Shown here in pieces: positions 41,165 through 55,474 of a stretch of 64,000 nucleotides of DNA. The notes under the pieces were generated by a model. The model did not search any database. It was not told the DNA's origin and saw only the letters and a program-made list of their open reading frames with translations. This DNA comes from Candidatus Sericytochromatia bacterium (lineage in GTDB: Bacteria > Cyanobacteriota > Sericytochromatia > S15B-MN24 > UBA4093): NCBI GenBank assembly GCA_036676985.1, contig JAKFBU010000077.1, forward strand, positions 48,576 to 112,575, written 5' to 3'. A program made the translations under genes and the position numbers. Numbering within the stretch: the stretch's first letter is position 1; each line of letters opens with the position of its first letter.

Positions 41165-41265
41165 GGTTGGACGGACCTGACGTCCGATATCCGGGTCAAT
41201 AATTGCTTGGGTAGTCATCCGAAATAGGCGTTTGTTCGAGTCTTTCCCGGGCCTGCCTATTAACA

Positions 41266-41340
41266 GGAGAAACAATCAGCCCCTCGTCTGCATATGAGGC
41301 GAGGGGCCTTTAGCGCGCCTGGCGAGACGACTATCGAACT
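41266..41340 (-). repeat. att-like junction R1 (hairpin + tRNA-Arg 3' half variant)
   Basis: GGAGAAACAATCAGCCCCTCGTCT-GCATATG-AGGCGAGGGGC then core TTAGCGCGCCTGGCGAGACGACTATCGAACT at 41310-41340. Confidence 0.9.
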
Positions 41341-41474
41341 TTCGTAACCGGGAATGGACCCATTAATCGGCCCGACACCTGAGCCTGGGCCCTTTGGGGG
41401 CATGTCATGTTGGTTGTCGCTTTCTGACACGGACACTTATTGCTAGAGTTTGCCTGAAAGGAGGACTAACGACA

Positions 41475-41753
41475 GTGCTTTCGAAAATCAAGCTTTCGCT
41501 CACCAGAATTGCCGTAGCTCTTTCTCTTATTTTCGCGATGAGTTTGCCAAGCGATGCGGGCAGAGGCTGTTGCTCCTGGCATGGAGGCGTGGCGGGATGC
41601 GACGAAACGGTTGGCCGCCTTGTGTGTAATGATGGGACATACTCTCCGAGCTGCACATGCGTGCGTAGTCTCCCTACGCCTGCGCCAGAACCTACGCTTA
41701 CGCCAGAGCCAATCCCTATGCCAACATCCGAAGACGAAGTGAGCAATCGGTAG
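41475..41753 (+). CDS. small secreted Cys-rich protein (cassette 1 cargo)
   Basis: AGGAGG RBS, GTG start, signal peptide, GRGCCSWHGGVAGC..VCNDGTYSPSCTC, Pro-rich tail. Confidence 0.75.
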   Translation: MLSKIKLSLTRIAVALSLIFAMSLPSDAGRGCCSWHGGVAGCDETVGRLVCNDGTYSPSCTCVRSLPTPAPEPTLTPEPIPMPTSEDEVSNR

Positions 41754-41839
41754 ACACCGCATTTGCATCAATTAATCGGTTATCCTCTATATCGGTCAAG
41801 GATTAGCCTCAAAGGGAATATCTGCATGGATGAAAAAGT

Positions 41840-41902
41840 GACCCCCCGCCTGCATTTGAGGCGAGGGGTCGTTAGCGCGCCTGGCGAGACGACTATCGAA
41901 CT
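41840..41902 (-). repeat. att-like junction R2
   Basis: GACCCCCCGCCT-GCATTTG-AGGCGAGGGGTC then identical 31-bp core at 41872-41902. Confidence 0.9.
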
Positions 41903-41914
41903 AACGTCTGCGCG

Positions 41915-42421
41915 TTATTGCGCCTGAAGCGTTACGTCTGAATTCCACAGATACTGAGCTTTTTGACCTGTTCCGCGCCGCCCGATCGTGCGGATGATCT
42001 CATCGCTGGCGAGGCCCAGTGAATGCAGTATTTCCCTGGCCCGGCTGATGGTGGGGTAAATCGAGGACGGGGACATGCCAGGGATTCCAACTTCGATGTC
42101 CTTAAGGGAGAGCGGGGTGCCTGCGTGTCGATAGAGTAGCCGAATGAGGTCCTCGACGCGGGGCGGGAGTAGGGCCCGCTTGCTTTTGTAACGCAAGGTG
42201 CCGGTAGTCAGCAGCAGGTCGCCTTCGCTTTTGGGAAGGGGAATGGGTGACGCCGTTGCCTCGGTGGCGATACGCTGAGTGTTGGGTCGGTCGTGCCCTG
42301 TCATGAGGCTTAGGGCCTGCTTGTAGGCAGCCACCCAGCCAAGGAATTGTTCCGGGGTCTGGTTCTGCTCCATGGCCTTTAGTAGGAGGTGCTCGATTAC
42401 CTCTTCCGGTGTTGTGCCCAT
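41915..42421 (-). CDS. OmpR-type winged-helix DNA-binding protein (cassette 2 cargo)
   Basis: LIRLLYRHAGTPLS..IYPTISRAREIL..IIRTIGRRG resembles Trans_reg_C; no receiver domain. Confidence 0.65.
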   Translation of the reverse strand: MGTTPEEVIEHLLLKAMEQNQTPEQFLGWVAAYKQALSLMTGHDRPNTQRIATEATASPIPLPKSEGDLLLTTGTLRYKSKRALLPPRVEDLIRLLYRHAGTPLSLKDIEVGIPGMSPSSIYPTISRAREILHSLGLASDEIIRTIGRRGTGQKAQYLWNSDVTLQAQ

Positions 42422-42743
42422 TGGCTTCCTCCCTCTGTTCAGCATCCACCCTGTTGCCACTATACACGACTAGCAAAGACTTAACACGTCTTGCTGGATA
42501 CTTTTGTTCGCGACTACTGAGGTGGCAAGCGTTCTCGATATCATCTGTCGTGCTGATTTTCGGAGTTGACCATAGGGCGAATGCATGATGAGGCTTGGCG
42601 TAACTACCAAGTTGACCAAGGTTTCGCATGATCGACGGGCTCAGTCTCCAGTATGGACGCCGACGTAATCCAAGGATAATGTGCTATTCTTGGATTCTAA
42701 GGGGCGAGGTCCAAGGTATCCAGACGAAACGCAGGAGGTGACA

Positions 42744-43982
42744 ATGGGCCGCCTTGTCGAACGTTATTGGGGATCAGACTGGGGTCGCATGGGAGGGCGA
42801 CGCGCGCGGCGCGGCTTCACGTACTTTGCGTATGTACCATCGACTGTCAGCGATCTGGAGCTGACGTTGCCCGCGGATCTCGCAGCTGAAATGATGGAGA
42901 CGGAAGCCCAACTAAGGGAATTACAGGGCGGCGCCAATCTACTGGGCCTCGAGTCGCTCAGCCGCCAGTTGCTCCGGGCCGAAAGTATCGCCTCGTCACG
43001 CATCGAGGGTCTCGAGCTTTCTCATCGCCGACTCGTCACGGCGCTCTACGATCCGGATGTCGCGGACGAGACTGCCCGTTTCGTCCTGGGAAACATCGCC
43101 GCCATGGAGTCGGCGATCCGACTTGCCACGGAATCACAGACGTTCGGCCTTACGGAACTCCTGGAGATCCATCGCCAGCTTCTGGAGCGTACGCCACTCC
43201 AGCGGATCGCCGGCCAAATCCGACTTGATCAGAACTGGATCGGGGGAGGGGCGGCAGGCCCACGCAACGCCGAATTCATACCGCCACCTGAGGACGAGGT
43301 GGAGGCCTTGCTCGAGGACTTGTGCGTCTTCATCGAACGAGACGACTTGCCTGCGATTGTCCAAGCGGCGATCGCACATGCCCAGTTCGAGACCATACAC
43401 CCTTTCGCCGATGGGAATGGGCGCGTCGGTCGTGCCCTTATTCATGCCATCCTGCGACGGCGAGGGGTTGCCACGACGATCGTTCCACCCATCAGCACCG
43501 TACTCGCCACCAACGGAGCGCGATACGTGCAAGGTCTCACCAGTTTCCGGGAAGAAAACACGCTCGATTGGTGCACATTCTTCACCCGGGTGGTGGCAAG
43601 CGCGGTCCAGCACTCAAACGATCTCGCCCATCGCCTAACCGCCCTTCAGGCCCGCTGGCATGAACAGGCCCATCATCCTCGTCGCAACTCGACCGCCGAA
43701 AAGCTCATTCAATCATTGCCCTCCAGTCCCGTGTTGGATATCCGCCTCGCGGCCGAGGTGGCTCAGGTGAGTGAAGAAGCGGCTCGTTTGGCTATCAATG
43801 CGCTCGCTGAGGCTGATGTCTTGAGTCCCATTCGGGTCGGGCGACGTAGGGGCCAGGCATGGGAGGCCAAGGAGATCGTGGCCTTACTTGATAACTTCGA
43901 ATGGGACCTCACGACTCCGACTCAACCCGAGCAACCGCGTCGTCGATCGCCTCGTCGTCGAGTCGTCCCGATGGAGAAATGA
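42744..43982 (+). CDS. Fic family protein (cassette 2 cargo)
   Basis: canonical HPFADGNGRVGR motif, ESIASSRIEG inhibitory-type helix, C-terminal HTH; AGGAGG RBS. Confidence 0.93.
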   Translation: MGRLVERYWGSDWGRMGGRRARRGFTYFAYVPSTVSDLELTLPADLAAEMMETEAQLRELQGGANLLGLESLSRQLLRAESIASSRIEGLELSHRRLVTALYDPDVADETARFVLGNIAAMESAIRLATESQTFGLTELLEIHRQLLERTPLQRIAGQIRLDQNWIGGGAAGPRNAEFIPPPEDEVEALLEDLCVFIERDDLPAIVQAAIAHAQFETIHPFADGNGRVGRALIHAILRRRGVATTIVPPISTVLATNGARYVQGLTSFREENTLDWCTFFTRVVASAVQHSNDLAHRLTALQARWHEQAHHPRRNSTAEKLIQSLPSSPVLDIRLAAEVAQVSEEAARLAINALAEADVLSPIRVGRRRGQAWEAKEIVALLDNFEWDLTTPTQPEQPRRRSPRRRVVPMEK

Positions 43983-44047
43983 GCGGCCCCCCGCCTAAGA
44001 TGCAGGCGGGGGGCCGTTAGCGCGCCTGGCGAGACGACTATCGAACC
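43973..44047 (-). repeat. att-like junction R3
   Basis: GGAGAAATGAGCGGCCCCCCGCCT-AAGATGC-AGGCGGGGGGCCG then core 44017-44047 (30/31 identical). Confidence 0.9.
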
Positions 44048-44189
44048 TTGGTAGCCAGGTTAAGTGATTTGCCGATCCGTCCTAACGCCTAAACTGGCCG
44101 TGTTTTCCTGGACGACGCTAGCCTTGGGGGCGGCTTTTAACTCGCCCAAGCCAATGAAGTCGAATCGCAGCATTGGCGAGGGGCAGACG

Positions 44190-45668
44190 CTACACGTTGG
44201 AATAGGCTCGCGTGCGCGCCACCCAGGCCATGACGTCCTCCTTGGGAGGCAAGTCTTGCAAGTCGATCAATGAGAGTTCGTCTTTCGAAATCGATTGGGA
44301 CGCTACTAGACGATTGGCATGACGCTCGAGGATCTTCTCGAAAAAGTTTCTGACTTCGCGTGCATTGCCAAAACCAGGTCCTTTGTTCTTGTAGACGTAG
44401 TCGAGAATGACTTTCGTCCCCTGAACACATCGCGGGGTCAATACATAGCCCGAATCTTCGGCCATTTTGAGGAGGATTGTATGCAGTTCCTCGGATGAGT
44501 AATCCGTAAATTCGATGTATTTGTTGAATCGCGAGCGCAGCCCCGGATTAGATTCGATAAAGTCCACCATTTTCTCGGAATAGCCAGCCACGATGACCAC
44601 TAGGTCATCCCGCCGGTCCTCCATGAGCTTCAAAAGGGTGTCGATGGCTTCACGGCCAAAGTCATTGTCACTGCCCTTTGGCGCGAGCGAATAAGCCTCA
44701 TCGATGAACAAGACGCCGCCGACAGCGCGTGAGACTACGTCACGCGTCTTGATCGCGGTCTGACCCACGTACCCCGCGACAAGACCGGATCGATCGACTT
44801 CGATCAAATGCCCCTTTGAAAGCAAGCCCAGCGAGCGGTAAACGTGCGCGAGGAGGCGGGCCACCGTCGTCTTGCCCGTGCCGGGATTACCCGAAAAGAC
44901 GAGGTGCAGAGAAAGCGGAGGAACTGGTAGCCCCGCCTGCTCACGAAGCTGGCGGACGCGTAAGAGGTTCGTCAGGGTCAAAACGTCTTGCTTGACCGGA
45001 CCCAAGCCCACCAATCGACTCAGCTGCTCCTGCAACTCCTCCCAACTCCTGGCAGGCTCCTGCTCGACCTGACTATCCTCTTGGAATTCGTCGTCCTCCT
45101 CATCGTCGAATGCTACCCGTATTCCGGTGCCGTCATCGGAAACGATCTCGATCTCGGCATCGCCATCCTCGACGTACACGCCGTTCATGCGGCAGATGAC
45201 CTGAAAGCTAGAGATTGTTTGGTTGAGGAGATCGAGCTCGCTTTCCGTGATTTTTCCGTCAATCGCGATGAGAGTCTTGCCAAGAACCTCGAACAATCCG
45301 ATTATGGCGTTCGCCATGGTGTTGTCCAGGTCCTTATCGCTTTCAATGGCTGCTTTTAGCAGCTGCGGAAAGCGAATGTGGTGATCGATTTCATCGGACA
45401 GAAAGGACTCGATGTAGCGGATCATATCTGCCTTGGAAAAGTCCAGATCCAACATCGTGCAGATGAGCTGATGCTCCTCGTCCGACAGATATTCGTCAGC
45501 CGATACGAGCAGGGCCGAAAAATAGAATAGGTTCTTGACGGTGACTTCCGACGGGTCCATATTCCGGACGATAAGGCGACTCCAGTAGCCTGCTTCCTTG
45601 AGGTTCTGAGCGCACTCGATGAGCTTTGTGGCGATGTGTTTGGCTTCTGCAACCTTCTGGGCGTTCAT
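44190..45668 (-). CDS. CbbX/SpoVK-type AAA+ ATPase with N-terminal TerB-like helical domain (cassette 3 cargo)
   Basis: HLVFSGNPGTGKTTVAR, YVGQTA, LFIDEAYSL, SNPGLRSRF, GNAREVRN; N-term ADEYLSDEE and AIDGKITESE TerB-like motifs. Confidence 0.88.
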   Translation of the reverse strand: MNAQKVAEAKHIATKLIECAQNLKEAGYWSRLIVRNMDPSEVTVKNLFYFSALLVSADEYLSDEEHQLICTMLDLDFSKADMIRYIESFLSDEIDHHIRFPQLLKAAIESDKDLDNTMANAIIGLFEVLGKTLIAIDGKITESELDLLNQTISSFQVICRMNGVYVEDGDAEIEIVSDDGTGIRVAFDDEEDDEFQEDSQVEQEPARSWEELQEQLSRLVGLGPVKQDVLTLTNLLRVRQLREQAGLPVPPLSLHLVFSGNPGTGKTTVARLLAHVYRSLGLLSKGHLIEVDRSGLVAGYVGQTAIKTRDVVSRAVGGVLFIDEAYSLAPKGSDNDFGREAIDTLLKLMEDRRDDLVVIVAGYSEKMVDFIESNPGLRSRFNKYIEFTDYSSEELHTILLKMAEDSGYVLTPRCVQGTKVILDYVYKNKGPGFGNAREVRNFFEKILERHANRLVASQSISKDELSLIDLQDLPPKEDVMAWVARTRAYSNV

Positions 45669-45684
45669 CTTGAAAAATTCCTGC

Positions 45685-46638
45685 TTATACTAGGCCATAT
45701 TCGCGGAACAATTTCATCAGTTCATTCCCATCGAGAAGTATTACTTGATTCTGTTGGGCATACTCGATGGCATCCGGTGATGTCTCGCCATTTGTGATGT
45801 AGACAATCTTGTCAAAGTTTCGGTTCCCCTTGGCAGAGAAAGGCATCATAAGCTGAAAGCGGGTGATGTACTCGTCTTCCCGAAAGTAGATGAGCCACTC
45901 TTGGCCCGACTCGAAGTGGCCGATCAGTTGCACGGCCTCATCCACATAACCAAGTTTCTCGAGCCGGCAGCGGAGTTTTCGAAATAGTTGAAAAACGAGC
46001 AGCTCCAAGCCTGATGTAGTTTCAGGCAAGGCCATGTCTTCACCAAAGGCGTCCACGTTCTCCAAATTGCCTGCCGTGCCTGCAATGAGTGCGTTGTTGT
46101 TTCTGGGCTTGGTTGGAGCCACGGGTGCCGCGTCGCTGCCGGAGGCAGCTTCTCGCTTTGGCGCCTTTTGCGGCTTGTGAGCATTGGATGGCGTTGGCTC
46201 TTGCCCCGTGCTCTCGGGTGGCGGAGCCACATAGTGTCCCAACGTAAGGAGGATCGTTCCGATTACGCAGGTGCTGAACCAGGCTGCTTGCCAGTCTGAG
46301 AAGCGGAATAACAGTTGTATCGGCAGAAAGAGGATCGCCGATACAACGAAGGCTCCAACAGCGACTTCCAGCGTAGTGAAGGGCTTGGAATCGACCGATG
46401 GTGCTTCCACTGCCTGGTTGGTCGAAGCCTTGAACGAGCGACCCGTCTTGGATTTCTGGCCATGGTTCACGGTGTAGGAAACGCCCGTTCCTGGCAACGA
46501 AACGGTAGTGCGGCTCCCATTCTTGCCTACGGTGTGCTTAAAGCCTTTTCCACCGAATGTCGTAGAAATCCCGCTCTTGCTGAAGTTAAGCGTGACGCCG
46601 GGCATCAGTTTTAGCCGACGTGAGAATCTAAATCCCAT
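45685..46638 (-). CDS. DUF4236 - 2TM - Mrr-like restriction endonuclease domain protein (cassette 3 cargo)
   Basis: N-term MGFRFSRRLKLMPGVTLNFSKSGIS..SLPGTGVSY (DUF4236); C-term ITNGETSPDAIEYA..LLDGNEL (Mrr_cat-like). Confidence 0.8.
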   Translation of the reverse strand: MGFRFSRRLKLMPGVTLNFSKSGISTTFGGKGFKHTVGKNGSRTTVSLPGTGVSYTVNHGQKSKTGRSFKASTNQAVEAPSVDSKPFTTLEVAVGAFVVSAILFLPIQLLFRFSDWQAAWFSTCVIGTILLTLGHYVAPPPESTGQEPTPSNAHKPQKAPKREAASGSDAAPVAPTKPRNNNALIAGTAGNLENVDAFGEDMALPETTSGLELLVFQLFRKLRCRLEKLGYVDEAVQLIGHFESGQEWLIYFREDEYITRFQLMMPFSAKGNRNFDKIVYITNGETSPDAIEYAQQNQVILLDGNELMKLFREYGLV

Positions 46639-47230
46639 GGAACCTCGTGATGCAGATAGAAGATCTCGTCATTTGATCGGTATACCCGATCATTGGTTAA
46701 TCGAAAGTAGAACAAATTTTCAAGCAGGACGGCAAGATAGGGGCAGCTTTCCTGCCTTTCACTGAAGTGGCCTCTTGGTTGGTTGAGAACTGCTGACCGA
46801 TATGGCCGGGTGACCTCCCCCGGAACCTTGGCTGTAGGGGATAACAGTCCTTGCTTGGGCTACGGTAAAGTGAGAGTGTCGCTCCGCGGTTGAGGTCCTT
46901 CCGAGGCGGTAAAACGGCCCAGCGGCTCTGTCGCTGGACCAAGGCGCGCTTGGAGAGGAAACGTTCGACCATTGGTCATCGGGTCATTGCGCTGGCGGGG
47001 AGATTAAGTCCTGACTAGGCCTCTGTTTCGGGGACCATGGCCGTAGGGCAGATTCGTCCTTGAGCGAGGTCTACCGAACCGCTGTCGGGAGTTCTACTTC
47101 ACTGCCTGTTCGGCGTGCGTCGCGTCGAGTGAGGCGGTTGGTCGGTCAAAGGTCGCGCCTCGGCTGCCTCCTGTTGGGGGCAATCGTCCATAAACGACGC
47201 GACGGCAGCGCTTCTGGGCCACCCTTGCGC

Positions 47231-47259
47231 TTGGAAAAGAGTGCTTGCCTGGGCATAAT
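47231..47259 (+). promoter_or_regulatory. sigma70-like promoter
   Basis: TTGGAA-N17-CATAAT upstream of GGAGGAGG RBS. Confidence 0.5.
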
Positions 47260-47289
47260 GGAAGGGCCCCACGCCCGGAGGAGGATGCC

Positions 47290-50200
47290 ATTTCAAGTCT
47301 GGTCCCTACCGTTGCAGGATACGTTCCCGACCTCTTGCTGACGTGGCCCGGATGGCATGCGGTCCCCGAGGCACGGATCGAGCGGTTACCGGGTGTCGTC
47401 CTCTTGGGGGACATCAGCGGCTTTACGGCCTTGACCGAGCGCCTGGCGCAGACGGGCACCGCCAGCGCCGAGCAACTCACGGACATCCTCAATGCCACCT
47501 TCGGACAGCTCATCGACGTCGTGTACCGCCTGGGCGGAGACGTCCTGAAGTTCGCGGGAGACGCCTTGCTTGCCGTTTGGCCTGCCACGGTTCACCCGGA
47601 TGGTCTCTCTGGGGCGCTCAACCTGGCCATCCAGTGCGGGCTCGAGATGCAGGCCCTCATGCAGGCATCGCCCTCCAACCACGAGCACCTGGCGCTGCGC
47701 GTCTCGATCGGGGCAGGGGACATCGCCATTGGAAAGGTCGGGGGAGAACGCAATCGCTGGGAGTTGCTTATCGCCGGCGATCCGCTCGCCGAGATCACGC
47801 AGATCGAGCCCGATGGTGCCCCCGGTCAGGTCCTGCTCTCAGCAGACGACGTCCCGCTGGTGGCGACGGACGTCCTGGGCCAACTCGTCTCGCCTCTCGC
47901 CTTTCGGATTGACGGCTTGCGCCGACGCTTGGTACCCGCGCCTCGAGTCGGCGGTCCGGCTGAACCGGAGATCGATGGATTGTTGGCCTTTGTGCCCGGA
48001 TCGATCCGGTCGCGTCTGGAGGCCGGGCAGACCGGCTGGCTCGCCGAGATGCGCCAGGTCTCGGTCGTCTTCATCAACTTGCCGGAGATGGGGAGCTTGG
48101 CCTCTCTCGACCGGGTCCAGGAGGTCTTTCGAGCGATCCAGGGGTGTCTCTATCGCTACGAAGGCAGCCTCAACAAGCTCAGCGTGGACGAAAAGGGCGT
48201 CTCGATCCTGGGGGCGTTCGGCCTCCCGCCGCTTGCCCATGAGGACGATCCGCTGCGGGCCCTGCAGGCGGCAAGCGATATCTGGAAGACCCTGAGTGCG
48301 CTCGGGGTACGAGCGGCCGTCGGCCTTGCCACCGGGCGGGTCTTCTGTGGTGAGGTCGGCAACGCCCGGCGCCGCGAGTACACGGTCATCGGGGATACGG
48401 TGAATCTGGCGGCACGCCTGATGCAGGCCGCAAAGCAGGGGATCCTGTGCGACGAGGCGACCCGCCTGGCCGCTCGCGATCGCTGGAGCTTCGAGGAACT
48501 GACGCCGGTTGCCTTCAAGGGCAAGGCGAAAGTGGTCTCGGTGTTTCGTCCCTTGCACATTGCGGCCCCCAAACGCCGCCGCGAGGGGCGCCTGATCGGC
48601 CGCGAGAAGGAGCTCGCAGCGCTCATCCCGCTTCAGGACGCCTTGCTCACCGGAGAGGCCACCCCGCTGGTTTGGCTCGAGGGCGAGCCGGGCATCGGGA
48701 AGTCCTACCTGGTGGACACCTTGATGCAGTCCGCCCGATCCCGGGGCCTCGCGTGCCTCCACGGTGCAGGGGACGCCATCGAGCGCGTCAGCCCCTACCG
48801 CGCCTGGCTTCCCATCCTGCACGCGATCGTCCTCGGAGACGTGGCTCCTCAGTTCCCAAACCGCGTCGAGGCGAGGCTCGAAACGCTCCTCGGCGATCGC
48901 TCCGACTTGTGGCCCATGCGATCGCTCCTCAACGCGCTGTTGCCGATCGACCTGCCCGGGAACGATGCGGTGCAGGGCCTCGATGCCACCTTGAGGGCAC
49001 AGATCACCCGCGACCTGCTCGTCGCCTTGATCCGCGGGTATGCGAGCACTCGACCCTGCATGCTGATCCTCGAAGATGCCCACTGGTTCGATTCGGCCTC
49101 GTGGCACCTCATGGCCCAGGTGGTCGCGTCCGATCGCCCTCTCTTGCTCGTCGTGACGACCCGTCCGAGCAGCCCGGTCCCCGCGGAGCTCACCGGCACC
49201 TTGAAGGGCCCCCACACACGCACCCTGCGGCTCGGCCCCCTCGAGCCGCAGGAGATCGAGGCGGTCGTGTGCGCTCGGCTGGGCGTAACGGCGCTCTCGG
49301 AACCCCTGGGGCACTTCATCCGAGAGCGCACGGAAGGCAATCCCTTCTTCAGCGAGGAGCTGGCGCTCGCTCTGCGGGAGGCGGGTCACCTGGAGCACGT
49401 CGCGGGCGAGCTACGCCTGGCGCCGACCGCTGACCCCGCCCGCTTGGACCTGCCGACCAACTTGGAGGGAATCGTCACCAGTCGACTCGATCGGTTGCCG
49501 CCGTCCCCGCAACTTCTGGCCAAGGTGGCGAGCGTCATCGGCCGCTCCTTTACCCTCGAGATGCTGACGGAGGTCTTACCGCTGGTCGACGCGCGCGAAC
49601 GCCTGCCGGAGTGGCTCGAAGAGCTCGTGGCCCTGGAGATCGTGAGCCCCGACCCGCTGGCCGACGGTCCTGCGTATCGGTTCCGGCATGCCATCACGCA
49701 CCACGTGACCTATCACTTGCTGGTGCCTAGCCAGCGACAAGCCTTGCACAGGGCCGTGGCCACGTATCTGGAGGCCGGGCCCGATCAGCGCGACCAGCTG
49801 CCCCACCTCACGCTTTTGGCCCATCACTGGGTGCAGGCCGACGATGTGGAACGCGCCTTTCCCTACCTCGAGCGGGCTGGCGACCATGCCCTCGCGACCA
49901 GTGCCCATCTCGAAGCCATAGAGTGTTACTCGCAGGCCTTGGCGCTGGCCGATCAGGGGCGGCTAGGCGTCGAGGCGGACACGATCATCCGGTTGCACGA
50001 CCGCCTGGGAGAGGCGTGTTTTGGTCTGGGGCGCATGACCGAGGCTCGGCAGCACCTGGAGCAGGGGCTGGCTAGACTTGGTCTTCCGATCGCAGAGACA
50101 TGGTCAGGGATCGGCAAGGGCATCACCAGCGAGATCTGGGCGCAGGTCGTGCAATGCTGGAAGCTTCCGTGGGGATGCCGCTCTAATTCCCTGTCGCAGG

Positions 50201-51357
50201 ACGCGCGGCTGCAAGCCGCGCGCCTGTTGGAGTTGCTCTTCGGGGCCTACATGTACACCAACGACCATGTGCGAGCGGCCTACGTCGCCCTGCGTGCCCT
50301 CAACCTTATCGAAAGCCTACCGCACACGGCCGAGTGGGCGCTTGCCAACGCGGAGATCGCCGCTCTGGTGTCTCACCTCAACGTGCGCAAGGTGTCCAAC
50401 TACTACCATGCGCGGGCCGAGGCGGCGGTCGGGACGCTCGACAACCTGTCACTGCGATCCCGCGTGCTCCAGATGAGCGGCATCTACTGGATGAATCTGA
50501 ACGACGCCCCGCGACTCAATCGGGTGCTCGAAGAGGCGATCGCCTTGACGGAACGCATGGGCGATCGCCGCGTCTGGGCCGAGTGCATGCACCTTCTGGG
50601 CTACAAGCACTACCAGCGGTGCGAATACACGTCTGCCATCATGGTGGGTGAGCGCCTGGCGGCAGCCTCGGAGCGGGCCGGGGACCTGCAAATGCAGGGC
50701 GGGGGGATCACGCTCGTGGCCTATGCTCTGTCCGATCTGGGCCGCGACGATGAAGCCTTGGCTTTGCTGGACGCCAATCAGCGCGTCTTCGAATGGAGCG
50801 AGAACCCGCTGGTCCCGATCAACCTGCAGGCCATACGCGCCAAGGCCCTGCTGCGCCTCGGGCGGCATGAGGACGCGTTGGCGGCCGCATGGGCCGTGGC
50901 CGACCAGCTCGAGCGATATGTTCCGACCGGGGATCCCGGTATCGGCGCACACCAGGTCGTCTGGTCCGTTCTCTACGAGTTGACGATCCTCCGCCGGTCG
51001 GCGATGGAGGGCGATCGCGAGCGCATCCTCAAGTTTGGGTGGCGCACGGCCTCGATCTTGCACGGTGCGGCACATGGGAGCCGGCAGCTCGAAAGCTCTG
51101 CCGAACTCGTGCGCGGTCAAGTCCAAGCCTTTGACGGGTGCACGCGCGACGCGATCCGAGCCTGGAAGCGGGCCTTGGAGCGGGCGCTTCGTCAGGATCA
51201 TCGCCACCAACTCGGGCTCGTCCACCTGGAGTTCGCGCGCCACGAACAGACGCCCAAAGCCCGTCGTGCCGTGCACCTTGGCGAAGCCGCGGCGAGTTTC
51301 GAAGCCATCGGCGCCCGATATGAACTGGAACTCGTTCGCACCTTACAGGCCCGCTAG
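47290..51357 (+). CDS. tandem class III adenylate/guanylate cyclase - STAND AAA ATPase - TPR protein (cassette 3 cargo); start codon uncertain
   Basis: GDISGFTALTE, KFAGDA, GDTVNLAARLM, GEPGIGKS, LEDAHWFD, EGNPFF, TPR-like C-terminus. Confidence 0.9.
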   Translation: MSSLVPTVAGYVPDLLLTWPGWHAVPEARIERLPGVVLLGDISGFTALTERLAQTGTASAEQLTDILNATFGQLIDVVYRLGGDVLKFAGDALLAVWPATVHPDGLSGALNLAIQCGLEMQALMQASPSNHEHLALRVSIGAGDIAIGKVGGERNRWELLIAGDPLAEITQIEPDGAPGQVLLSADDVPLVATDVLGQLVSPLAFRIDGLRRRLVPAPRVGGPAEPEIDGLLAFVPGSIRSRLEAGQTGWLAEMRQVSVVFINLPEMGSLASLDRVQEVFRAIQGCLYRYEGSLNKLSVDEKGVSILGAFGLPPLAHEDDPLRALQAASDIWKTLSALGVRAAVGLATGRVFCGEVGNARRREYTVIGDTVNLAARLMQAAKQGILCDEATRLAARDRWSFEELTPVAFKGKAKVVSVFRPLHIAAPKRRREGRLIGREKELAALIPLQDALLTGEATPLVWLEGEPGIGKSYLVDTLMQSARSRGLACLHGAGDAIERVSPYRAWLPILHAIVLGDVAPQFPNRVEARLETLLGDRSDLWPMRSLLNALLPIDLPGNDAVQGLDATLRAQITRDLLVALIRGYASTRPCMLILEDAHWFDSASWHLMAQVVASDRPLLLVVTTRPSSPVPAELTGTLKGPHTRTLRLGPLEPQEIEAVVCARLGVTALSEPLGHFIRERTEGNPFFSEELALALREAGHLEHVAGELRLAPTADPARLDLPTNLEGIVTSRLDRLPPSPQLLAKVASVIGRSFTLEMLTEVLPLVDARERLPEWLEELVALEIVSPDPLADGPAYRFRHAITHHVTYHLLVPSQRQALHRAVATYLEAGPDQRDQLPHLTLLAHHWVQADDVERAFPYLERAGDHALATSAHLEAIECYSQALALADQGRLGVEADTIIRLHDRLGEACFGLGRMTEARQHLEQGLARLGLPIAETWSGIGKGITSEIWAQVVQCWKLPWGCRSNSLSQDARLQAARLLELLFGAYMYTNDHVRAAYVALRALNLIESLPHTAEWALANAEIAALVSHLNVRKVSNYYHARAEAAVGTLDNLSLRSRVLQMSGIYWMNLNDAPRLNRVLEEAIALTERMGDRRVWAECMHLLGYKHYQRCEYTSAIMVGERLAAASERAGDLQMQGGGITLVAYALSDLGRDDEALALLDANQRVFEWSENPLVPINLQAIRAKALLRLGRHEDALAAAWAVADQLERYVPTGDPGIGAHQVVWSVLYELTILRRSAMEGDRERILKFGWRTASILHGAAHGSRQLESSAELVRGQVQAFDGCTRDAIRAWKRALERALRQDHRHQLGLVHLEFARHEQTPKARRAVHLGEAAASFEAIGARYELELVRTLQAR

Positions 51358-51466
51358 GCGAAGACCAAGGCCCCTTAGCCTCAAGGCTTGGGCCTGCGAC
51401 TAGAAGTTGTTGAATAGGCGTTTTTCCCATTTGCCTGGTGACCCGGCGAGAACTATCGCTAATAGT

Positions 51467-51533
51467 GAACCCCCGCAAACCGTGATGGCTTGCGGGGGTT
51501 CGTCAGCGCGCCTGGCGAGACAACTATCGAACT
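51467..51533 (-). repeat. att-like junction R4
   Basis: GAACCCCCGCAA..TTGCGGGGGTTC hairpin then TCAGCGCGCCTGGCGAGACAACTATCGAACT (29/31 identical) at 51503-51533. Confidence 0.88.
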
Positions 51534-51701
51534 ACATTAACTAGGTTAAGTGAATTACCGATCGCTCCTAACACTTGACTTGGCCTTGATTTCTGGGACC
51601 ACGTCGGCTCCTCCAGCTCTGCAAAATTTCCATCGTCTCTATGTTCACATAATAACCTTCTTGTAATAATGTCACATCTGGATTCATAAAGGAGTGCATC
51701 C

Positions 51702-52313
51702 ATGATTGCTCTGAGCTCCGTAACTTCTTCGCTAAAGGCAGCCAAGTCCATTCAGGCCTTTGTCGAAGGCGGAATACTCTCGACCATTCTGTCAGCCATT
51801 GGAGACGTGGAATACCGCGCAGCGGCTCGAGTTCTTAGGAATCTTAATGAAGCATCGAATCAACGGGAGCGGGTTTTGTCGGCAATTAACCACTTAGAAA
51901 CGTCCCATATAGCATATTCAACTGATATAAATCGAATGACTGGCATAATCGAATATGTTCGTGGGATTAAACGAATGTCCGTGGCAAAAAAAGACGTATT
52001 TACGCTATGTATTCTGGCTATCTGCTATAAATACACAGGAGAATTGACCCTTATGAGGGAGTCTCTGGATCAGGCCAAAGAGGTTTTGAATATTTATCCC
52101 AAGATGGAAGATCAAACCATTAAAGAAATTTTTTGCGACAAGAAGCACAGGAGTCAATACGTCAAGGCCTTGACATCAATTATTCCTACCTATTTCACGC
52201 CCGGCATCCTAAAAGAAATCGACGACACGCCAACCATCTATGGCGCCGATTTTGAGTCCTTTCAAGCCGAACTGCTCTCAAAGGTTGTTGCCGAGCCTTC
52301 ATCCGTTGTTTAG
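51702..52313 (+). CDS. AT-rich hypothetical protein (cassette 4 cargo)
   Basis: AAGGAG RBS, 203-aa ORF in visibly AT-richer DNA. Confidence 0.65.
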   Translation: MIALSSVTSSLKAAKSIQAFVEGGILSTILSAIGDVEYRAAARVLRNLNEASNQRERVLSAINHLETSHIAYSTDINRMTGIIEYVRGIKRMSVAKKDVFTLCILAICYKYTGELTLMRESLDQAKEVLNIYPKMEDQTIKEIFCDKKHRSQYVKALTSIIPTYFTPGILKEIDDTPTIYGADFESFQAELLSKVVAEPSSVV

Positions 52314-52348
52314 GCCTCGCTAGACCGAAGTATAGAAAGGAGCGGGCA

Positions 52349-52648
52349 ATGCAATCAGTAGCTCAGGATGTAAAGCCCTTGTATTGGCAGAACAGTTACC
52401 ATAACCTGAGTGGATACTATCCAGGGTTTACAGTCTATAGAAATCGCATTGAGTACGATAACCGTCCCTTCATGCCGAGTGGTCGAATCACCGTTTACTT
52501 TAAGAACATCGTTAGCGTTGATGCTGTTGGCAACGGCATCTTATCCTACAAACGGGTAGTAATTACAACGATGGATGGGGATAGGCATGAGATCAGGACA
52601 AAGGAAAATCACGAGTTGAGAGAGATCATCTTGGGGCTGACGAAGTAA
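52349..52648 (+). CDS. small PH-fold-like hypothetical protein (cassette 4 cargo)
   Basis: AAGGAG RBS, 99 aa, FTVYRNRIEY..VYFKNIVSV..VVITT pattern of bacterial PH domains. Confidence 0.6.
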   Translation: MQSVAQDVKPLYWQNSYHNLSGYYPGFTVYRNRIEYDNRPFMPSGRITVYFKNIVSVDAVGNGILSYKRVVITTMDGDRHEIRTKENHELREIILGLTK

Positions 52649-52803
52649 TCCTGAGGCCCTATTCGTGAACCAATCCATTGCCGGACAAGCTCAATTCCCG
52701 TGAGAACTCACCTTTCTATCTGTCCGGCGCTGGGGGAGCAGGTCAGTCCCGTTGGTCCCATTCCAATAACCGGCTCCAGACTTGGAAAACCCAACTCTCA
52801 ACC

Positions 52804-53961
52804 TTATGCCGAAATCTCACTTCCCGCCGCCCGGTAGGCAGCCAGAATTAGGGGAACCAACGCCTTGATGTCGGAAATATCGCTGATCACCACCCGACAC
52901 GAATCCGCCGCTTGGTTATAGTTTTCGACCTTGCCCGCATCACCAAGAATGGCGTTCGCCTGTGACAGAGGGATATGGAAGACGACCGATTTCTTGTCGG
53001 TGCCGAACAGAAGGCGCATGAACCAGCGGGATGGCTTCTCCAAATGTATGACAAAGTAGCTGGCCGTATCCTTGTAAGCCACATGGGAATCCCCACCATT
53101 GGTGGCCTTGATGGTCTCACAGACCAGGTTGAAAGCGGCCAGCTCCTCTTCAGTGGTAACCACCGCGGTCTTGAAGTCGGGAGACTTGGTTCCTTCCGCT
53201 GCAGGCACCAGGTCCTGAGCCGAAGGAACAATCGCGGCGACCTCGTCGGTCTTGGCGATCTCCTGGGTGAGGCCCTGGGAGACCATGTCGACCAACACGT
53301 CGGACATTGCCTGCTGGACGAGCGGCGTCAGGCGTTCCAGGACATTGGCCGTAATGCGCCCCTGGTAGATGTCGCTGCACATGAACCGCACAAACTCGTC
53401 CGAGGTGTCTCGGAACAAGGACCGTACCTTCTTCTTGAGGGTCCGCAGGTAGACCAGGTTCTCCGCACGAGTGACCAGCCCCGAGGGATCGAAGCAATCG
53501 GCCCGGAACCCATCGAGGATGGCGATCTCCTCCGGGCGAATCGACTCGATCTCGAACTCGAAAAACGGCTCCGAGTCCATGAGGTTCGGCGCTTTGAGAT
53601 CTGTAAAGAACTTGTACCGGACCCCGTTCGTGATGACGGCGAGCTTGACCCCGGGCGTCGAGTTGAAGTACTTGGCGAGCTGGGCGTCGTAGTTGTCTAG
53701 CTGCGAGGCCACGGGTTTCGCCTCTACGAAGAGCACTGGCGCCCCCTTGAGGAAGACCGCGTAGTCCACCTTTTCCTTGTTGGCCGCAAACCCGGCGCGA
53801 TATTCGGGATAGAGTACCGACGGATCGTGGATGTCGTAGCCGAGGACTTGGAAGAAGGGCAGGATCAGGGAGTTCTTGGTCAACTCCTCGTTCCCCTTGC
53901 AGTGCTCCTTACGAGCAGAAACCTGGGAGGCCAACCTGTAGACTTCTTCAGCGAATCCCAT
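52804..53961 (-). CDS. type I restriction enzyme HsdR N-terminal-domain nuclease protein (stand-alone; cassette 4 cargo)
   Basis: EELTKNSLILPFFQVLGYD, EKVDYA..FVEAK PD-(D/E)xK, QLAKYF, ITNGVRYKFFTDL..NLMDSEPF, VVTTEEE. Confidence 0.88.
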   Translation of the reverse strand: MGFAEEVYRLASQVSARKEHCKGNEELTKNSLILPFFQVLGYDIHDPSVLYPEYRAGFAANKEKVDYAVFLKGAPVLFVEAKPVASQLDNYDAQLAKYFNSTPGVKLAVITNGVRYKFFTDLKAPNLMDSEPFFEFEIESIRPEEIAILDGFRADCFDPSGLVTRAENLVYLRTLKKKVRSLFRDTSDEFVRFMCSDIYQGRITANVLERLTPLVQQAMSDVLVDMVSQGLTQEIAKTDEVAAIVPSAQDLVPAAEGTKSPDFKTAVVTTEEELAAFNLVCETIKATNGGDSHVAYKDTASYFVIHLEKPSRWFMRLLFGTDKKSVVFHIPLSQANAILGDAGKVENYNQAADSCRVVISDISDIKALVPLILAAYRAAGSEISA

Positions 53962-54219
53962 ATGGTCCTTCCTTTGCAGGGTAGCTAGGCAGTGTCACGT
54001 GAATTTCCTCGTTATAGACCTGGATCATGGCAACGGATCGGCGAGGGTCCGCCAACGATTGTACTTGGCAAGCGGACGTCATGCAATTTTGCTTATTTAT
54101 TTTTACGGTGACGATTTGTTCGGTTTGCGCCAGTTCGCGGCTCAGATACCGTCCTGTGACCTGATCTCGAAATCCTGTCCAGCAAAGGCTTTTGGGACAA
54201 ACGAGTTGACGGAAAGTGC

Positions 54220-54236
54220 GAGTCTCACTGAGACTC
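54220..54236. promoter_or_regulatory. perfect 8-1-8 palindrome, candidate protein-binding site
   Basis: GAGTCTCA-C-TGAGACTC. Confidence 0.45.
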
Positions 54237-54247
54237 ACCTTCACGTC

Positions 54248-54295
54248 GGAGAAACGATCGGCCCCCCGTCTGCATTTGAGACGGGGGGCTGTTAG
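54248..54295 (-). terminator. hairpin immediately 3' of tRNA-Arg; same family as R1-R3 hairpins
   Basis: GGAGAAACGATCGGCCCCCCGTCT-GCATTTG-AGACGGGGGGCTGTTAG. Confidence 0.8.
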
Positions 54296-54368
54296 CGCGC
54301 CTGACAAGACTCGAACTTGTGACTTCTTGCTCCGGAGGCAAGCGCTCTATCCACTGAGCTACAGGCGC
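54296..54368 (-). tRNA. tRNA-Arg(CCG), CCA not encoded
   Basis: folds as GCGCCTG TA GCTC AGTGGATA GAGC G CTTGC CTCCGGA GCAAG AAGTC ACAAG TTCGAGT CTTGT CAGGCGC G (73 nt), anticodon CCG. Confidence 0.97.
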
Positions 54369-54425: not shown

Positions 54426-54938
54426 CTACGGGGCACCCCGCGTCACGATGACCCGGTACAGGTAGTCCGAGCCCGGCAATGAACTGAAGTCCAGCGTTCG
54501 GGCCGGATCCCCCTGATAGTGATACGTCCAGGTCGTCGTCCCCGTGCGCTTGCTGGTCGACTTGCCGGTTGGCTTGCCGTACCAGCGCTCCACGTCCCTG
54601 AGCGTCCAGGAGGTCCTTAGCGTCGACCCATGCTTGAGCTGGGAGTCGAGGTACATGGGGCCCGCCGCCAGGTAGAAGAGGACGGACTGCACCTCCCCCG
54701 CGCCCGAGGCGTAGAGGTCGATGCCCCCGAGATAGGGGGCTTTCCCTTCCACCAGGTAGTGACGGCCCCCGTCCCCCTCCGAGTCCAGCTCCGGCTTGTG
54801 GCCGAGCCAGTCGAAGAAGACCTGCTCAGAGGGCGTCGCGGGCTGCAGGTAGCGCTCCCAGTCCTGACGATCCAGTTGCGGGGCGGCGGCGACCGGAGTG
54901 GCGATCGCCACCGCCATCAAACCCAGCAAATACCGCAT
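54426..54938 (-). CDS. secreted hypothetical protein
   Basis: ATG overlaps TAA of upstream TlpA gene; signal peptide MRYLLGLMAVAIATPVAA. Confidence 0.7.
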   Translation of the reverse strand: MRYLLGLMAVAIATPVAAAPQLDRQDWERYLQPATPSEQVFFDWLGHKPELDSEGDGGRHYLVEGKAPYLGGIDLYASGAGEVQSVLFYLAAGPMYLDSQLKHGSTLRTSWTLRDVERWYGKPTGKSTSKRTGTTTWTYHYQGDPARTLDFSSLPGSDYLYRVIVTRGAP

Positions 54939-55474
54939 TAGAGGAGGGGCTGGATTTCCTTCATGAAGGCGTCCTTGAGCTCCTCCTCGGTCGACCCGGG
55001 CAGGCCCACGAACTTCTTCACGATGTTGCCCTTGCGGTCCACGATGAACGTGGTGGGGATGCCCCGGATGCCACCGTAGGCCGAGACCACGCCCTGGTCC
55101 CCGATGACCACCGGGTAGTTCATCTTGTTTTCCTTGACGAAGGGAGCCACCACCGAGTCGCCCTTCTGGTCCAGCGAGATGCCGATGATCTCGACGCCCT
55201 TGCCCTTGAGATCCTTGTACATGCTGATGAAGTGCGGGATCTCCTCGCGGCAGGGCGGGCACCAGGTCGCCCAGAAGTTCACGATGCGGACCTTGCCGCT
55301 GTAGTCGGAGAGCTTGACGGCCTTGCCGTCGCCCGTGCGAGGCAGGGAGAAGTCGGGGGCCTGCTTGGGGGCGGCGATCGCCACACCGGCCGAGGGGTCG
55401 AACGCGGGCACGGCGAGCACGCCGAACGCGGCCAGCGCCACGGAAAGGGGAAGCCACTGCTTCAACGTCGCCAT
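54938..55474 (-). CDS. TlpA/ResA family thiol-disulfide oxidoreductase
   Basis: APDFSL, NFWATWCPPCREEIP, GIPTTF. Confidence 0.92.
   Translation of the reverse strand: MATLKQWLPLSVALAAFGVLAVPAFDPSAGVAIAAPKQAPDFSLPRTGDGKAVKLSDYSGKVRIVNFWATWCPPCREEIPHFISMYKDLKGKGVEIIGISLDQKGDSVVAPFVKENKMNYPVVIGDQGVVSAYGGIRGIPTTFIVDRKGNIVKKFVGLPGSTEEELKDAFMKEIQPLL

Follow-up and report, generated by a model that had tools for sequence, protein, structure and literature searches.

Expanded tRNA-tail repeats 3' of tRNA-Arg(CCG) in a Candidatus Sericytochromatia genome as possible attachment-site junctions of a large serine recombinase

In the genome of a soil bacterium of the Candidatus Sericytochromatia (G000), the tRNA-Arg(CCG) gene is followed on the minus strand by four direct repeats, R4, R3, R2, and R1 in that order, each of which consists of the tail of this tRNA, from T-loop to acceptor, with TAGTC inserted, then a short trailer and a GC-rich hairpin. 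The array was analysed in a stretch of 64,000 nt, here called the window (G000:C77:48576-112575), which reaches the contig end and in which tRNA-Arg(CCG) is the only tRNA gene. On balance, we think that successive site-specific insertions at the 3' end of tRNA-Arg(CCG) left the four repeats behind as attachment-site junctions, and we consider a large serine recombinase (LSR) not encoded by G000 the most likely enzyme. Linkage of the array's motif to LSR genes is found elsewhere, and the enzyme class proposed for the window array itself is by extension an LSR.

A repeat search recovers five in-register 76-nt copies, namely the four repeats and the tail of the tRNA gene (Table 1). The repeats read GTTCGA-TAGTC-GTCTCGCCAGGCGCGC on the minus strand where the tRNA reads GTTCGA-GTCTTGTCAGGCGCGC, and in a MAFFT alignment the tRNA row has a gap of five columns exactly at the TAGTC of the repeats. 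Read to the end, a repeat runs GTTCGA-TAGTC-GTCTCGCC-AGGCGCGC-TAA, the GC-rich hairpin, and TTTCTCC, and the tRNA runs GTTCGA-GTCTTGTC-AGGCGCGC-TAA followed by a homologous hairpin; the 12-nt outer motif is GTTCGAWAGTCG. A 33-nt core differs at zero to two positions among the four copies, each of which is recovered by nhmmer at E = 1e-11 to 1e-12, and the reversed pattern, used as a control, has no match in the same genome. In the tRNA, the 3' strand of the T-stem is CTTGT, paired with ACAAG, but in the repeats it is CTCGC, so that an exchange that leaves the tRNA intact must fall 3' of the T-stem, within CAGGCGCGCTAA. Sequence of the window is present in soil and groundwater public runs of several studies; R4 is spanned by a contig of an independent public run (X4, 51151-52319) and R3 by a contig of another (X5, 43307-44446), and these repeats are therefore not an assembly artefact of G000. 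No joints, loose ends, or rearrangements were seen at the repeats in the contigs of X4, X5, X6, and X7, which are short, of low depth, and silent on excision.

The preliminary description of this DNA had placed the end of GTTCGA 18 bp from the GCG/CGC centre in the repeats and 13 bp from it in the tRNA, and our measurements gave the same distances. Measured to a common point between tRNA positions 71 and 72, the half-site in the repeats (P half) is 24 bp long and that in the tRNA (B half) 19 bp, an offset of 5 bp; 11 of the inner 15 positions are identical in the two, and the outer nonamers are GTTCGATAG and GTTCGAGTC, respectively. For the Listeria phage LI integrase, the cited part of the published account assigns the motif of the zinc-ribbon domain (ZD) to bp 16-24 in attP half-sites and to bp 11-19 in attB half-sites, the segment bound by the recombinase domain (RD) being in the same register (PMC3783163). 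As a sequence pattern, the 24/19-bp geometry of the array matches this attP/attB offset, in agreement with the ZD shift that the preliminary description had invoked, and the 24/19-bp pattern also holds in two other genomes, G002 and G008. The internal junctions could then be labelled P-P'. The same description had also seen a mirror of GTTCGA on the opposite arm, and here only the position stood: TCAAAT (tRNA and R2) or TCATAT (R1) does lie at positions 19-24, but these match TCGAAC at only four or three of six positions, belong to three homologous arms, and are absent from R3 (TGCATC) and R4 (AGCCAT).

Copies of the motif are not restricted to the window. In G000, nhmmer finds six copies of the core, four in the window, one on C30, and one on C28. 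The C30 copy lies 2.1 kb 3' of tRNA-Arg(CCT) and encloses a second Fic gene and a PRiA4_ORF3 gene, and the C28 copy is degenerate, with no tRNA in the first 40 kb of that contig; weak nhmmer matches on C41 were rejected as coding sequence. The 16-mer GTTCGAWAGTYGTCTC occurs in two of 401 sampled genomes of the phylum, five times in G000 and once in G002 (three matches for the reversed control). In G002, which belongs to another genus, the 15 nt fused to GTTCGATAGTCGTCTC match the tail of the local tRNA-Arg(ACG) exactly, rather than that of tRNA-Arg(CCG), and the fusion sits 0.85 kb 3' of the ACG gene; the outer 5-bp-expanded part is thus retained, and what varies with the local target is the inner part. 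The LSR of G002 itself, on C11, is 1.5 kb from tRNA-Val, with no motif nearby. A degenerate 18-mer scan of 47 genomes of the class gave, beyond the known copies, one credible match (G009:C14) and one uncertain match (G015:C8), as well as three that, from their context, resemble coding sequence. The exact core TTCGANAGTNGTCTCNCCAGGCGCGC and its Arg-generalised form had no match in the genome collection, and a 24-letter form had none in the metagenome collection; the exact core is absent from the viral collection, and two scans of viral contigs yielded three chance matches in coding context, away from any tRNA. The 5-bp-expanded motif is conserved across three genera and two tRNA-Arg isoacceptors.

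Two side observations concern the tRNA genes at these copies. The end of C68 and the start of C30 in G000 carry the same tRNA-Arg(CCT) sequence, at which the assembly breaks, and the C30 cassette with the Fic and PRiA4_ORF3 genes follows. G002:C28 (L040/L041) and G008:C22 each have two identical tRNA-Arg(ACG) genes several kb apart, with the repeat family behind the first copy; in G002, the genes between the two encode GlnRS, a subtilase, an AraC protein, and a hemerythrin.

One of the two links to an LSR comes from a metagenome contig, L108. A looser metagenome scan with the 18-mer was followed for the best 80 of 82 stretches, and in one of these 80 loci, L108, the 18-mer lies within 4 nt of the 3' end of a tRNA-Arg(CCG), in mirror orientation. 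The other 79 have no tRNA-Arg context, look like chance matches, and were set aside; ten open reading frames (ORFs) from six of them are ordinary genes, e.g., for a phosphorylase, a TonB receptor, and a histidinol dehydrogenase. L108 reads as the B half GTTCGATTCCCACTGGGGG (19 bp), then TACTTA plus the 18-mer GCGAGACGACTATCGAAC (24 bp), then a terminator. The window P half is the 18-mer plus CAGGCG, again 24 bp, and the half of the tRNA itself is 19 bp, so that the matching 19/24-bp halves put the mirror axis at the same tRNA position, 71/72, in both. An adjacent, convergent 573-aa ORF encodes Resolvase (3.6e-21) and Recombinase (2.1e-6) domains and extends across the site into the tRNA. Over 75% of its length, it is ~25% identical to annotated phage serine integrases; it matches only distant serine integrases among phages and plasmids (22-29% identity), and has no relatives among viral contigs. 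The only other ORF of L108 is a partial ISL3-like transposase. By reasoning rather than computation, we estimate the probability of a chance 18-mer match beside this tRNA at the order of 1e-3 over the 80 matches, and the exact symmetric spacing would add, again roughly, a factor of ten or so against chance.

The other link is G008, from the same family but a third genus, in which contig C22 presents, in order, tRNA-Arg(ACG), an abutting LSR gene, ~27 kb of sequence, repeat A (GTTCTGAGGTCGTCCCTCTGGGCGCGC), and then repeat B (GTTCTAAGATCGTCCCGCTGGGCGCGCC). The two repeats have diverged, and each has the 5-bp expansion, the trailer, and the hairpin; the first of them, 27 kb from the LSR gene, is where the distal end of an element would be. 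The LSR has all three domains (Resolvase, Recombinase, and Zn_ribbon_recom), and a search of related DNA for a gene of this composition linked to the core, the check that the preliminary description had put forward, was thus positive twice, with two domains in L108 and three in G008. More broadly, 6 of the 17 LSR frames of at least 500 aa in the 47 class genomes are convergent with a tRNA gene and abut its 3' end (Arg, Pro twice, Val, Ala, and Glu), and all six junctions consist of the tRNA end, a trailer of 4-8 nt, and a GC hairpin, the architecture of the right arms in the window. As for the remaining 11 frames, several are on short contigs, and one ARAGORN call (G001:C298) is apparently spurious. 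The second LSR of G008, at tRNA-Pro, was uninformative: its two distal repeats are plain tRNA copies of 17-20 nt that lack a clean 5-bp expansion, and the island also contains a tyrosine integrase.

The frames and hairpins at these junctions show further regularities. Six LSR frames (L169, L170, L180, L181, L184, and L188, in G008, G010, G012, and G026) run through the terminator hairpin into the antisense of the tRNA 3' end, so that attP seems to lie inside or just past the 3' end of the integrase gene, and both printed G008 frames end ...RDSNPRP.... Three of the hairpins, those at tRNA-Arg, tRNA-Ala, and tRNA-Glu, share the palindromic loop region GGATCTGATGGRTCC / GGACCGTCAGGGTCC.

A mechanism can be proposed that would join these features. 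The live tRNA would provide a B-type half-site, in which the T-loop GTTCGA would occupy bp 14-19 counted from a crossover that falls between tRNA positions 71 and 72. The mobile unit would carry a P half that copies the tRNA tail plus 5 bp, with GTTCGA at bp 19-24, and a P' arm made of a replacement trailer and a terminator hairpin, which would serve the tRNA for as long as that unit is the newest. Upon recombination of the unit with the tRNA B half at 71/72, the tRNA body would be kept, the trailer and terminator of the unit acquired, and the previous trailer displaced behind the P half of the unit. Repeated insertion would push older units outward and produce the order seen here: tRNA, cassette 4, R4, cassette 3, R3, cassette 2, R2, cassette 1, R1. 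The crossover point, the insertion order, and the mobilisation in trans of cassettes that lack a recombinase are what we infer. Such a mechanism would explain the intact tRNA, the core conserved far better than its surroundings, and the terminator-like hairpin after every repeat, conserved in position and free in sequence. The hairpins have diverged to 62-82% with pairing preserved, and they fold better than shuffled sequence in R2 to R4 (z = -4.2 to -5.7) and in the tRNA trailer (z = -3.5); for the whole of R1, the fold is not better than that of shuffled sequence (z = -0.9).

Several observations weigh against an LSR. No full-length LSR is encoded in G000, whose serine recombinases amount to a 258-aa fragment (C41) and one short gene with class-wide conservation (C61), and the array would therefore be either a fossil or served in trans. 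The central dinucleotide at 71/72 is GC in G000, G002, and G008 (GT in L108), and every dinucleotide within GCGCGC is palindromic; a palindromic central dinucleotide leads to loss of orientation control in studied LSRs, as in the work on Bxb1, and is atypical for LSR sites. The right arms of the window show little dyad symmetry with the P half, ~9-10 of 23-24 positions by hand count and four, three, or none of the six in the outer motif, whereas the P' arm of L108 is an exact mirror of the window 18-mer. The link through L108 rests on one short contig, and its LSR has no Pfam zinc ribbon. The LSRs of L108 and G008 are only 21% identical, and those concerned share 20-28% with one another. In G008, the 32-kb island is also flanked by a 75-nt direct repeat of tRNA tail plus terminator and contains a sub-threshold Phage_integrase match (23.6 bits). 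Neither a 5-bp-expanded tRNA copy nor a distal tRNA-like repeat was found in the available contig parts of three other LSR-tRNA islands (G012:C289, G026:C59, and G026:C95) or in the whole 12-kb G010:C555. Tandem growth, finally, is not standard LSR behaviour; in the cited part of the LI integrase study, LSRs are reported to need a directionality factor before attL or attR can recombine with other sites (PMC3783163). Recombination between attP and attL does not occur with canonical LSRs, and stacking into a B-P' junction would thus need a permissive, Ccr-like enzyme or another route.

The short serine-recombinase gene is part of a wider pattern: 43 of the 47 class genomes have one ORF of ~265-300 aa with a Recombinase domain (E ~1e-20 to 1e-25; loci L136-L165), and the G000 version (C61:8560-9264, 304 aa) also has a Resolvase domain. 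Given this wide conservation, the gene looks vertically inherited rather than mobile.

The most serious alternative, although we regard it as unlikely, is that the repeats are att scars of tyrosine integrases in tandem tRNA islands whose integrases were later lost, with TAGTC inserted by accident in an ancestral attP and passed on to all descendants. Direct repeats of a tRNA 3' fragment in tRNA orientation, with 13-15 nt of identity and homologous flanks, are the classical signature of such islands, and tandem arrays are catalogued for tyrosine integrases in the cited part of the Islander work (PMC4383910). A displaced fragment of this kind is present here, but it does not discriminate between the enzyme classes. 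As the preliminary description had noted, TCGTTA-GCGCGCC-TGGCGA also fits a 7-bp overlap between 6-bp arms, although the inverted-repeat match of these arms is only four of six and the conserved 18-bp block is long for a core-type site of a tyrosine enzyme. G000 does encode tyrosine integrases, on C62 next to tRNA-SeC and on C41, and the weak match in the G008 island also points this way; against this, contig C77 has neither a tyrosine integrase (Phage_integrase, PF00589) nor an LSR, no recombinase domain of any kind was found in the selected ORFs scanned around the repeat copies (window, G000:C30, G000:C28, G002:C28, and the other ORF of L108), and the gene adjoining the tRNA encodes an HSDR_N-like protein rather than an integrase. 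The only locus with the exact motif beside a recombinase, L108, has an LSR. Moreover, the expansion is retained where the inner sequence is re-matched to another tRNA and is mirrored at the exact symmetric distance in L108, neither of which is predicted by an inert inherited insertion.

Less probable still is a spread without any dedicated recombinase, by segmental duplication or homologous recombination of terminator-bearing copies of the tRNA tail, which would make the LSR geometry a coincidence. Some copies may well be related by descent, as R3 and R4 have 112 nt of flanking sequence in common at 78% and the similarity among the arms of R1, R2, and the tRNA is 66-82%, and the lack of junction polymorphism in the public contigs fits as well, if weakly, given how short those contigs are. 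However, the cassettes are unrelated in gene content and in GC (45-68%), the core has diverged far less than the hairpins, and other tRNA-Arg genes and other genera also have copies, in which the inner sequence is matched to the target. The reading that we find hardest to credit is that the repeat is functional as an RNA module, transcribed along with the cassettes and made up of a tRNA-like 3' domain and a terminator. The core can be folded as UAGUCGUCU/AGGCG.CGCUA with a strong hairpin behind it, and the hairpin weakly resembles Rfam P35, but at 39 bits against a gathering score of 70; no Rfam family is reached at threshold, compensatory change is seen in one of 21 predicted pairs among three sequences, and the fold of R1 is no better than that of its shuffles. 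An integron cassette array was rejected, as no integrase was found at either end of the array in ORF and domain scans, the cassette genes lie on both strands, and the hairpins are explained as tRNA terminators.

Returning to successive insertion by an LSR, a more specific version can be put forward only tentatively, and we would not expect it to hold in full: an LSR lineage may use the universal T-loop GTTCGA as its ZD motif, dock at tRNA 3' ends with crossover at 71/72, carry a "tRNA tail plus 5 bp" mimic as an attP half that can be re-matched to new tRNAs, and stack recombinase-less defence cassettes in trans.

Table 1. Coordinates in the window of the tRNA-Arg(CCG) gene, the repeats with their proposed half-sites and right arms, and the cassettes
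Feature	Position	Strand	Basis
tRNA-Arg(CCG), intact, CCA not encoded	54295-54368 (start 54295 or 54296)	-	ARAGORN; Rfam RF00005, 71.2 bits
tRNA tail copy of the 76-nt repeat	54246-54321	-	repeat search
R1, whole 76-nt repeat	41264-41339	-	repeat search
R2, whole 76-nt repeat	41826-41901	-	repeat search
R3, whole 76-nt repeat	43971-44046	-	repeat search
R4, whole 76-nt repeat	51457-51532	-	repeat search
B-type half-site (proposed) at tRNA positions 53-71, GTTCGAGTCTTGTCAGGCG, 19 bp ending at the proposed centre 71/72	54298-54316	-	sequence; geometry by analogy with LI integrase
R1, putative P-type half-site, GTTCGATAGTCGTCTCGCCAGGCG, 24 bp	41316-41339	-	sequence, alignment, nhmmer
R2, putative P-type half-site, 24 bp identical to R1	41878-41901	-	sequence, alignment, nhmmer
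R3, putative P-type half-site, 24 bp identical to R1	44023-44046	-	sequence, alignment, nhmmer
R4, putative P-type half-site, one change (TAGTT for TAGTC)	51509-51532	-	sequence, alignment, nhmmer
R1 right arm: CGCTAA trailer, GC-rich hairpin, TTTCTCC	41264-41315	-	repeat search, folding
R2 right arm: trailer and hairpin, z = -4.8	41826-41877	-	repeat search, folding
R3 right arm: trailer and hairpin, z = -4.2; contains Fic gene stop codon	43971-44022	-	repeat search, ORFs, folding
R4 right arm: hairpin of different sequence at same position, z = -5.7	51457-51508	-	repeat search, folding
Live tRNA trailer and terminator hairpin, homologous to R1/R2 arms	54246-54297	-	repeat search, alignment, folding
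Cassette 1, 0.5 kb: sole ORF 119 aa, no Pfam match	41340-41825		ORF list, Pfam
Cassette 2, 2.1 kb: SoFic-type Fic protein at 42681-43982 (+); small minus-strand ORFs	41902-43970		Pfam Fic 5.9e-21; PADLOC SoFic 2.2e-74
Cassette 3, 7.4 kb	44047-51456		Pfam, PADLOC
Cassette 3: AAA ATPase	44190-45668	-	
Cassette 3: DUF4236+Mrr_cat nuclease	45685-46638	-	
Cassette 3: cyclase+STAND+TPR protein, 1370 aa	47245-51357	+	
Cassette 4, 2.7 kb, 45-55% GC: 203-aa and 99-aa ORFs (+)	51533-54245		Pfam, GC
Cassette 4: HSDR_N-like ORF, 385 aa, adjoining the tRNA	52804-53961	-	

The four cassettes bounded by the repeats contain no recombinase gene according to ORF and domain scans (Table 1). Across ~39.5-54.5 kb of the window, GC content drops from ~65% to 45-60%, the cyclase gene excepted. 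Three relatives (G002, G003, and G004) share synteny on the 5' flank of the tRNA but not on the left flank, and the DEAD-box helicase gene to the left of the array is located elsewhere in the relatives, so that the empty site cannot be reconstructed. In the core-looking region 5' of the tRNA, a 1764-aa protein (57423-62717, minus strand) combines Ser/Thr kinase, AAA_16 (STAND-like), GAF, HisKA, and HATPase_c domains. Homologues of the ORF at 54426-55457 in G003, G004, G007, and G009 have one or two in-frame stops, mostly TGA; possible explanations are an over-call of this ORF and decay or recoding of the gene in the relatives.

The flanks of the repeats also hold similarities outside the 76-nt unit. 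About 70 nt 5' of the core, in the minus-strand sense, are alike in R3 (44047-44117), R4 (51533-51603), and the C28 copy (G000:C28:8120-8188), and partly in R1, and form a shared element-side arm outside the 24-bp half-site. Three loci, R1, the live tRNA, and tRNA-Arg(CCT) on C30, each have an inverted T-arm copy without the 5-bp expansion 70-100 nt to their 3' side. The one just past R1 (GTTCGAGTCTTTCCCGGGCC, 41231-41252, plus strand) is insertion-free, that 3' of the live tRNA (~54195-54215) is weaker, and that on G000:C30 (~190-210), 70 nt 3' of tRNA-Arg(CCT), has a 2-nt insertion.

LSRs are not classically tied to tRNA genes, and a limited literature search did not turn up any explicit account of an LSR with its attB in a tRNA T-arm. 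If the array is indeed the work of an LSR, serine integrases would, in at least one bacterial class, regularly target tRNA genes, and the array would be a natural case, readable from sequence, of the 5-bp rule that relates attP to attB, with an attB motif that is a universal feature of an RNA gene. This would also suggest how such enzymes switch targets and how new pairs of integrase and att site could be predicted, and it would provide a route to defence islands built from recombinase-less cassettes. If a tyrosine integrase was responsible instead, the array would be an ordinary decayed tandem island with a curious shared insertion. We know of no description of a 5-bp-expanded target mimic for the staphylococcal cassette chromosome (SCC), the known system that the array resembles in its tandem organisation.

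As far as the cited parts of the respective studies go, several known systems share features with the array. In the LI integrase of Listeria phage A118 (Rutherford et al. 2013, PMC3783163), the inner RD-bound segment is likewise shared in register and the outer motif lies 5 bp outward in attP; unlike that system, the array has its attB in the 3' end of a tRNA gene with the universal T-loop as outer motif, right arms that are terminator hairpins of little symmetry, a palindromic centre, and no cognate enzyme in the genome. The tRNA islands catalogued by Islander (PMC4383910) have ends that are similarly marked by an intact tRNA and displaced 3' fragments in the same orientation, and they too stack in tandem, but each member of an Islander array carries an integrase of its own, and the fragments are plain, whereas the members of this array have none and all of its fragments are 5-bp expanded; in contrast to the tyrosine islands, the recombinases linked to the array's motif elsewhere are of the serine type. 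The tycheposons of Prochlorococcus (bioRxiv 10.1101/2020.12.28.424599) also stack cargo at tRNA genes, with only partial tRNA copies between and degenerate remnants further in, although they mostly carry tyrosine recombinases and replication genes (an LSR in 27 of 937) and belong to a different host lineage, and half-site geometry does not come up in the cited part of that study. Composite SCC islands are tandem arrays built by LSRs (Ccr), with five recombination sites in the described case and with psi-SCC units that lack a recombinase (PMC5397144). Like the array, they dock at the 3' end of a conserved gene and consist of tandem units, some recombinase-less, between direct-repeat recombination sites; they differ in that their target is rlmH rather than a tRNA gene, in that they carry Ccr genes, and in that their cargo is resistance genes rather than the phage-defence-like cargo seen here. 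Membership of the array among LSR attachment sites is not established, and what it most resembles, in our somewhat favourable judgement, is serine-type integration at tRNA T-arm/acceptor sites by means of a 5-bp-expanded target mimic.

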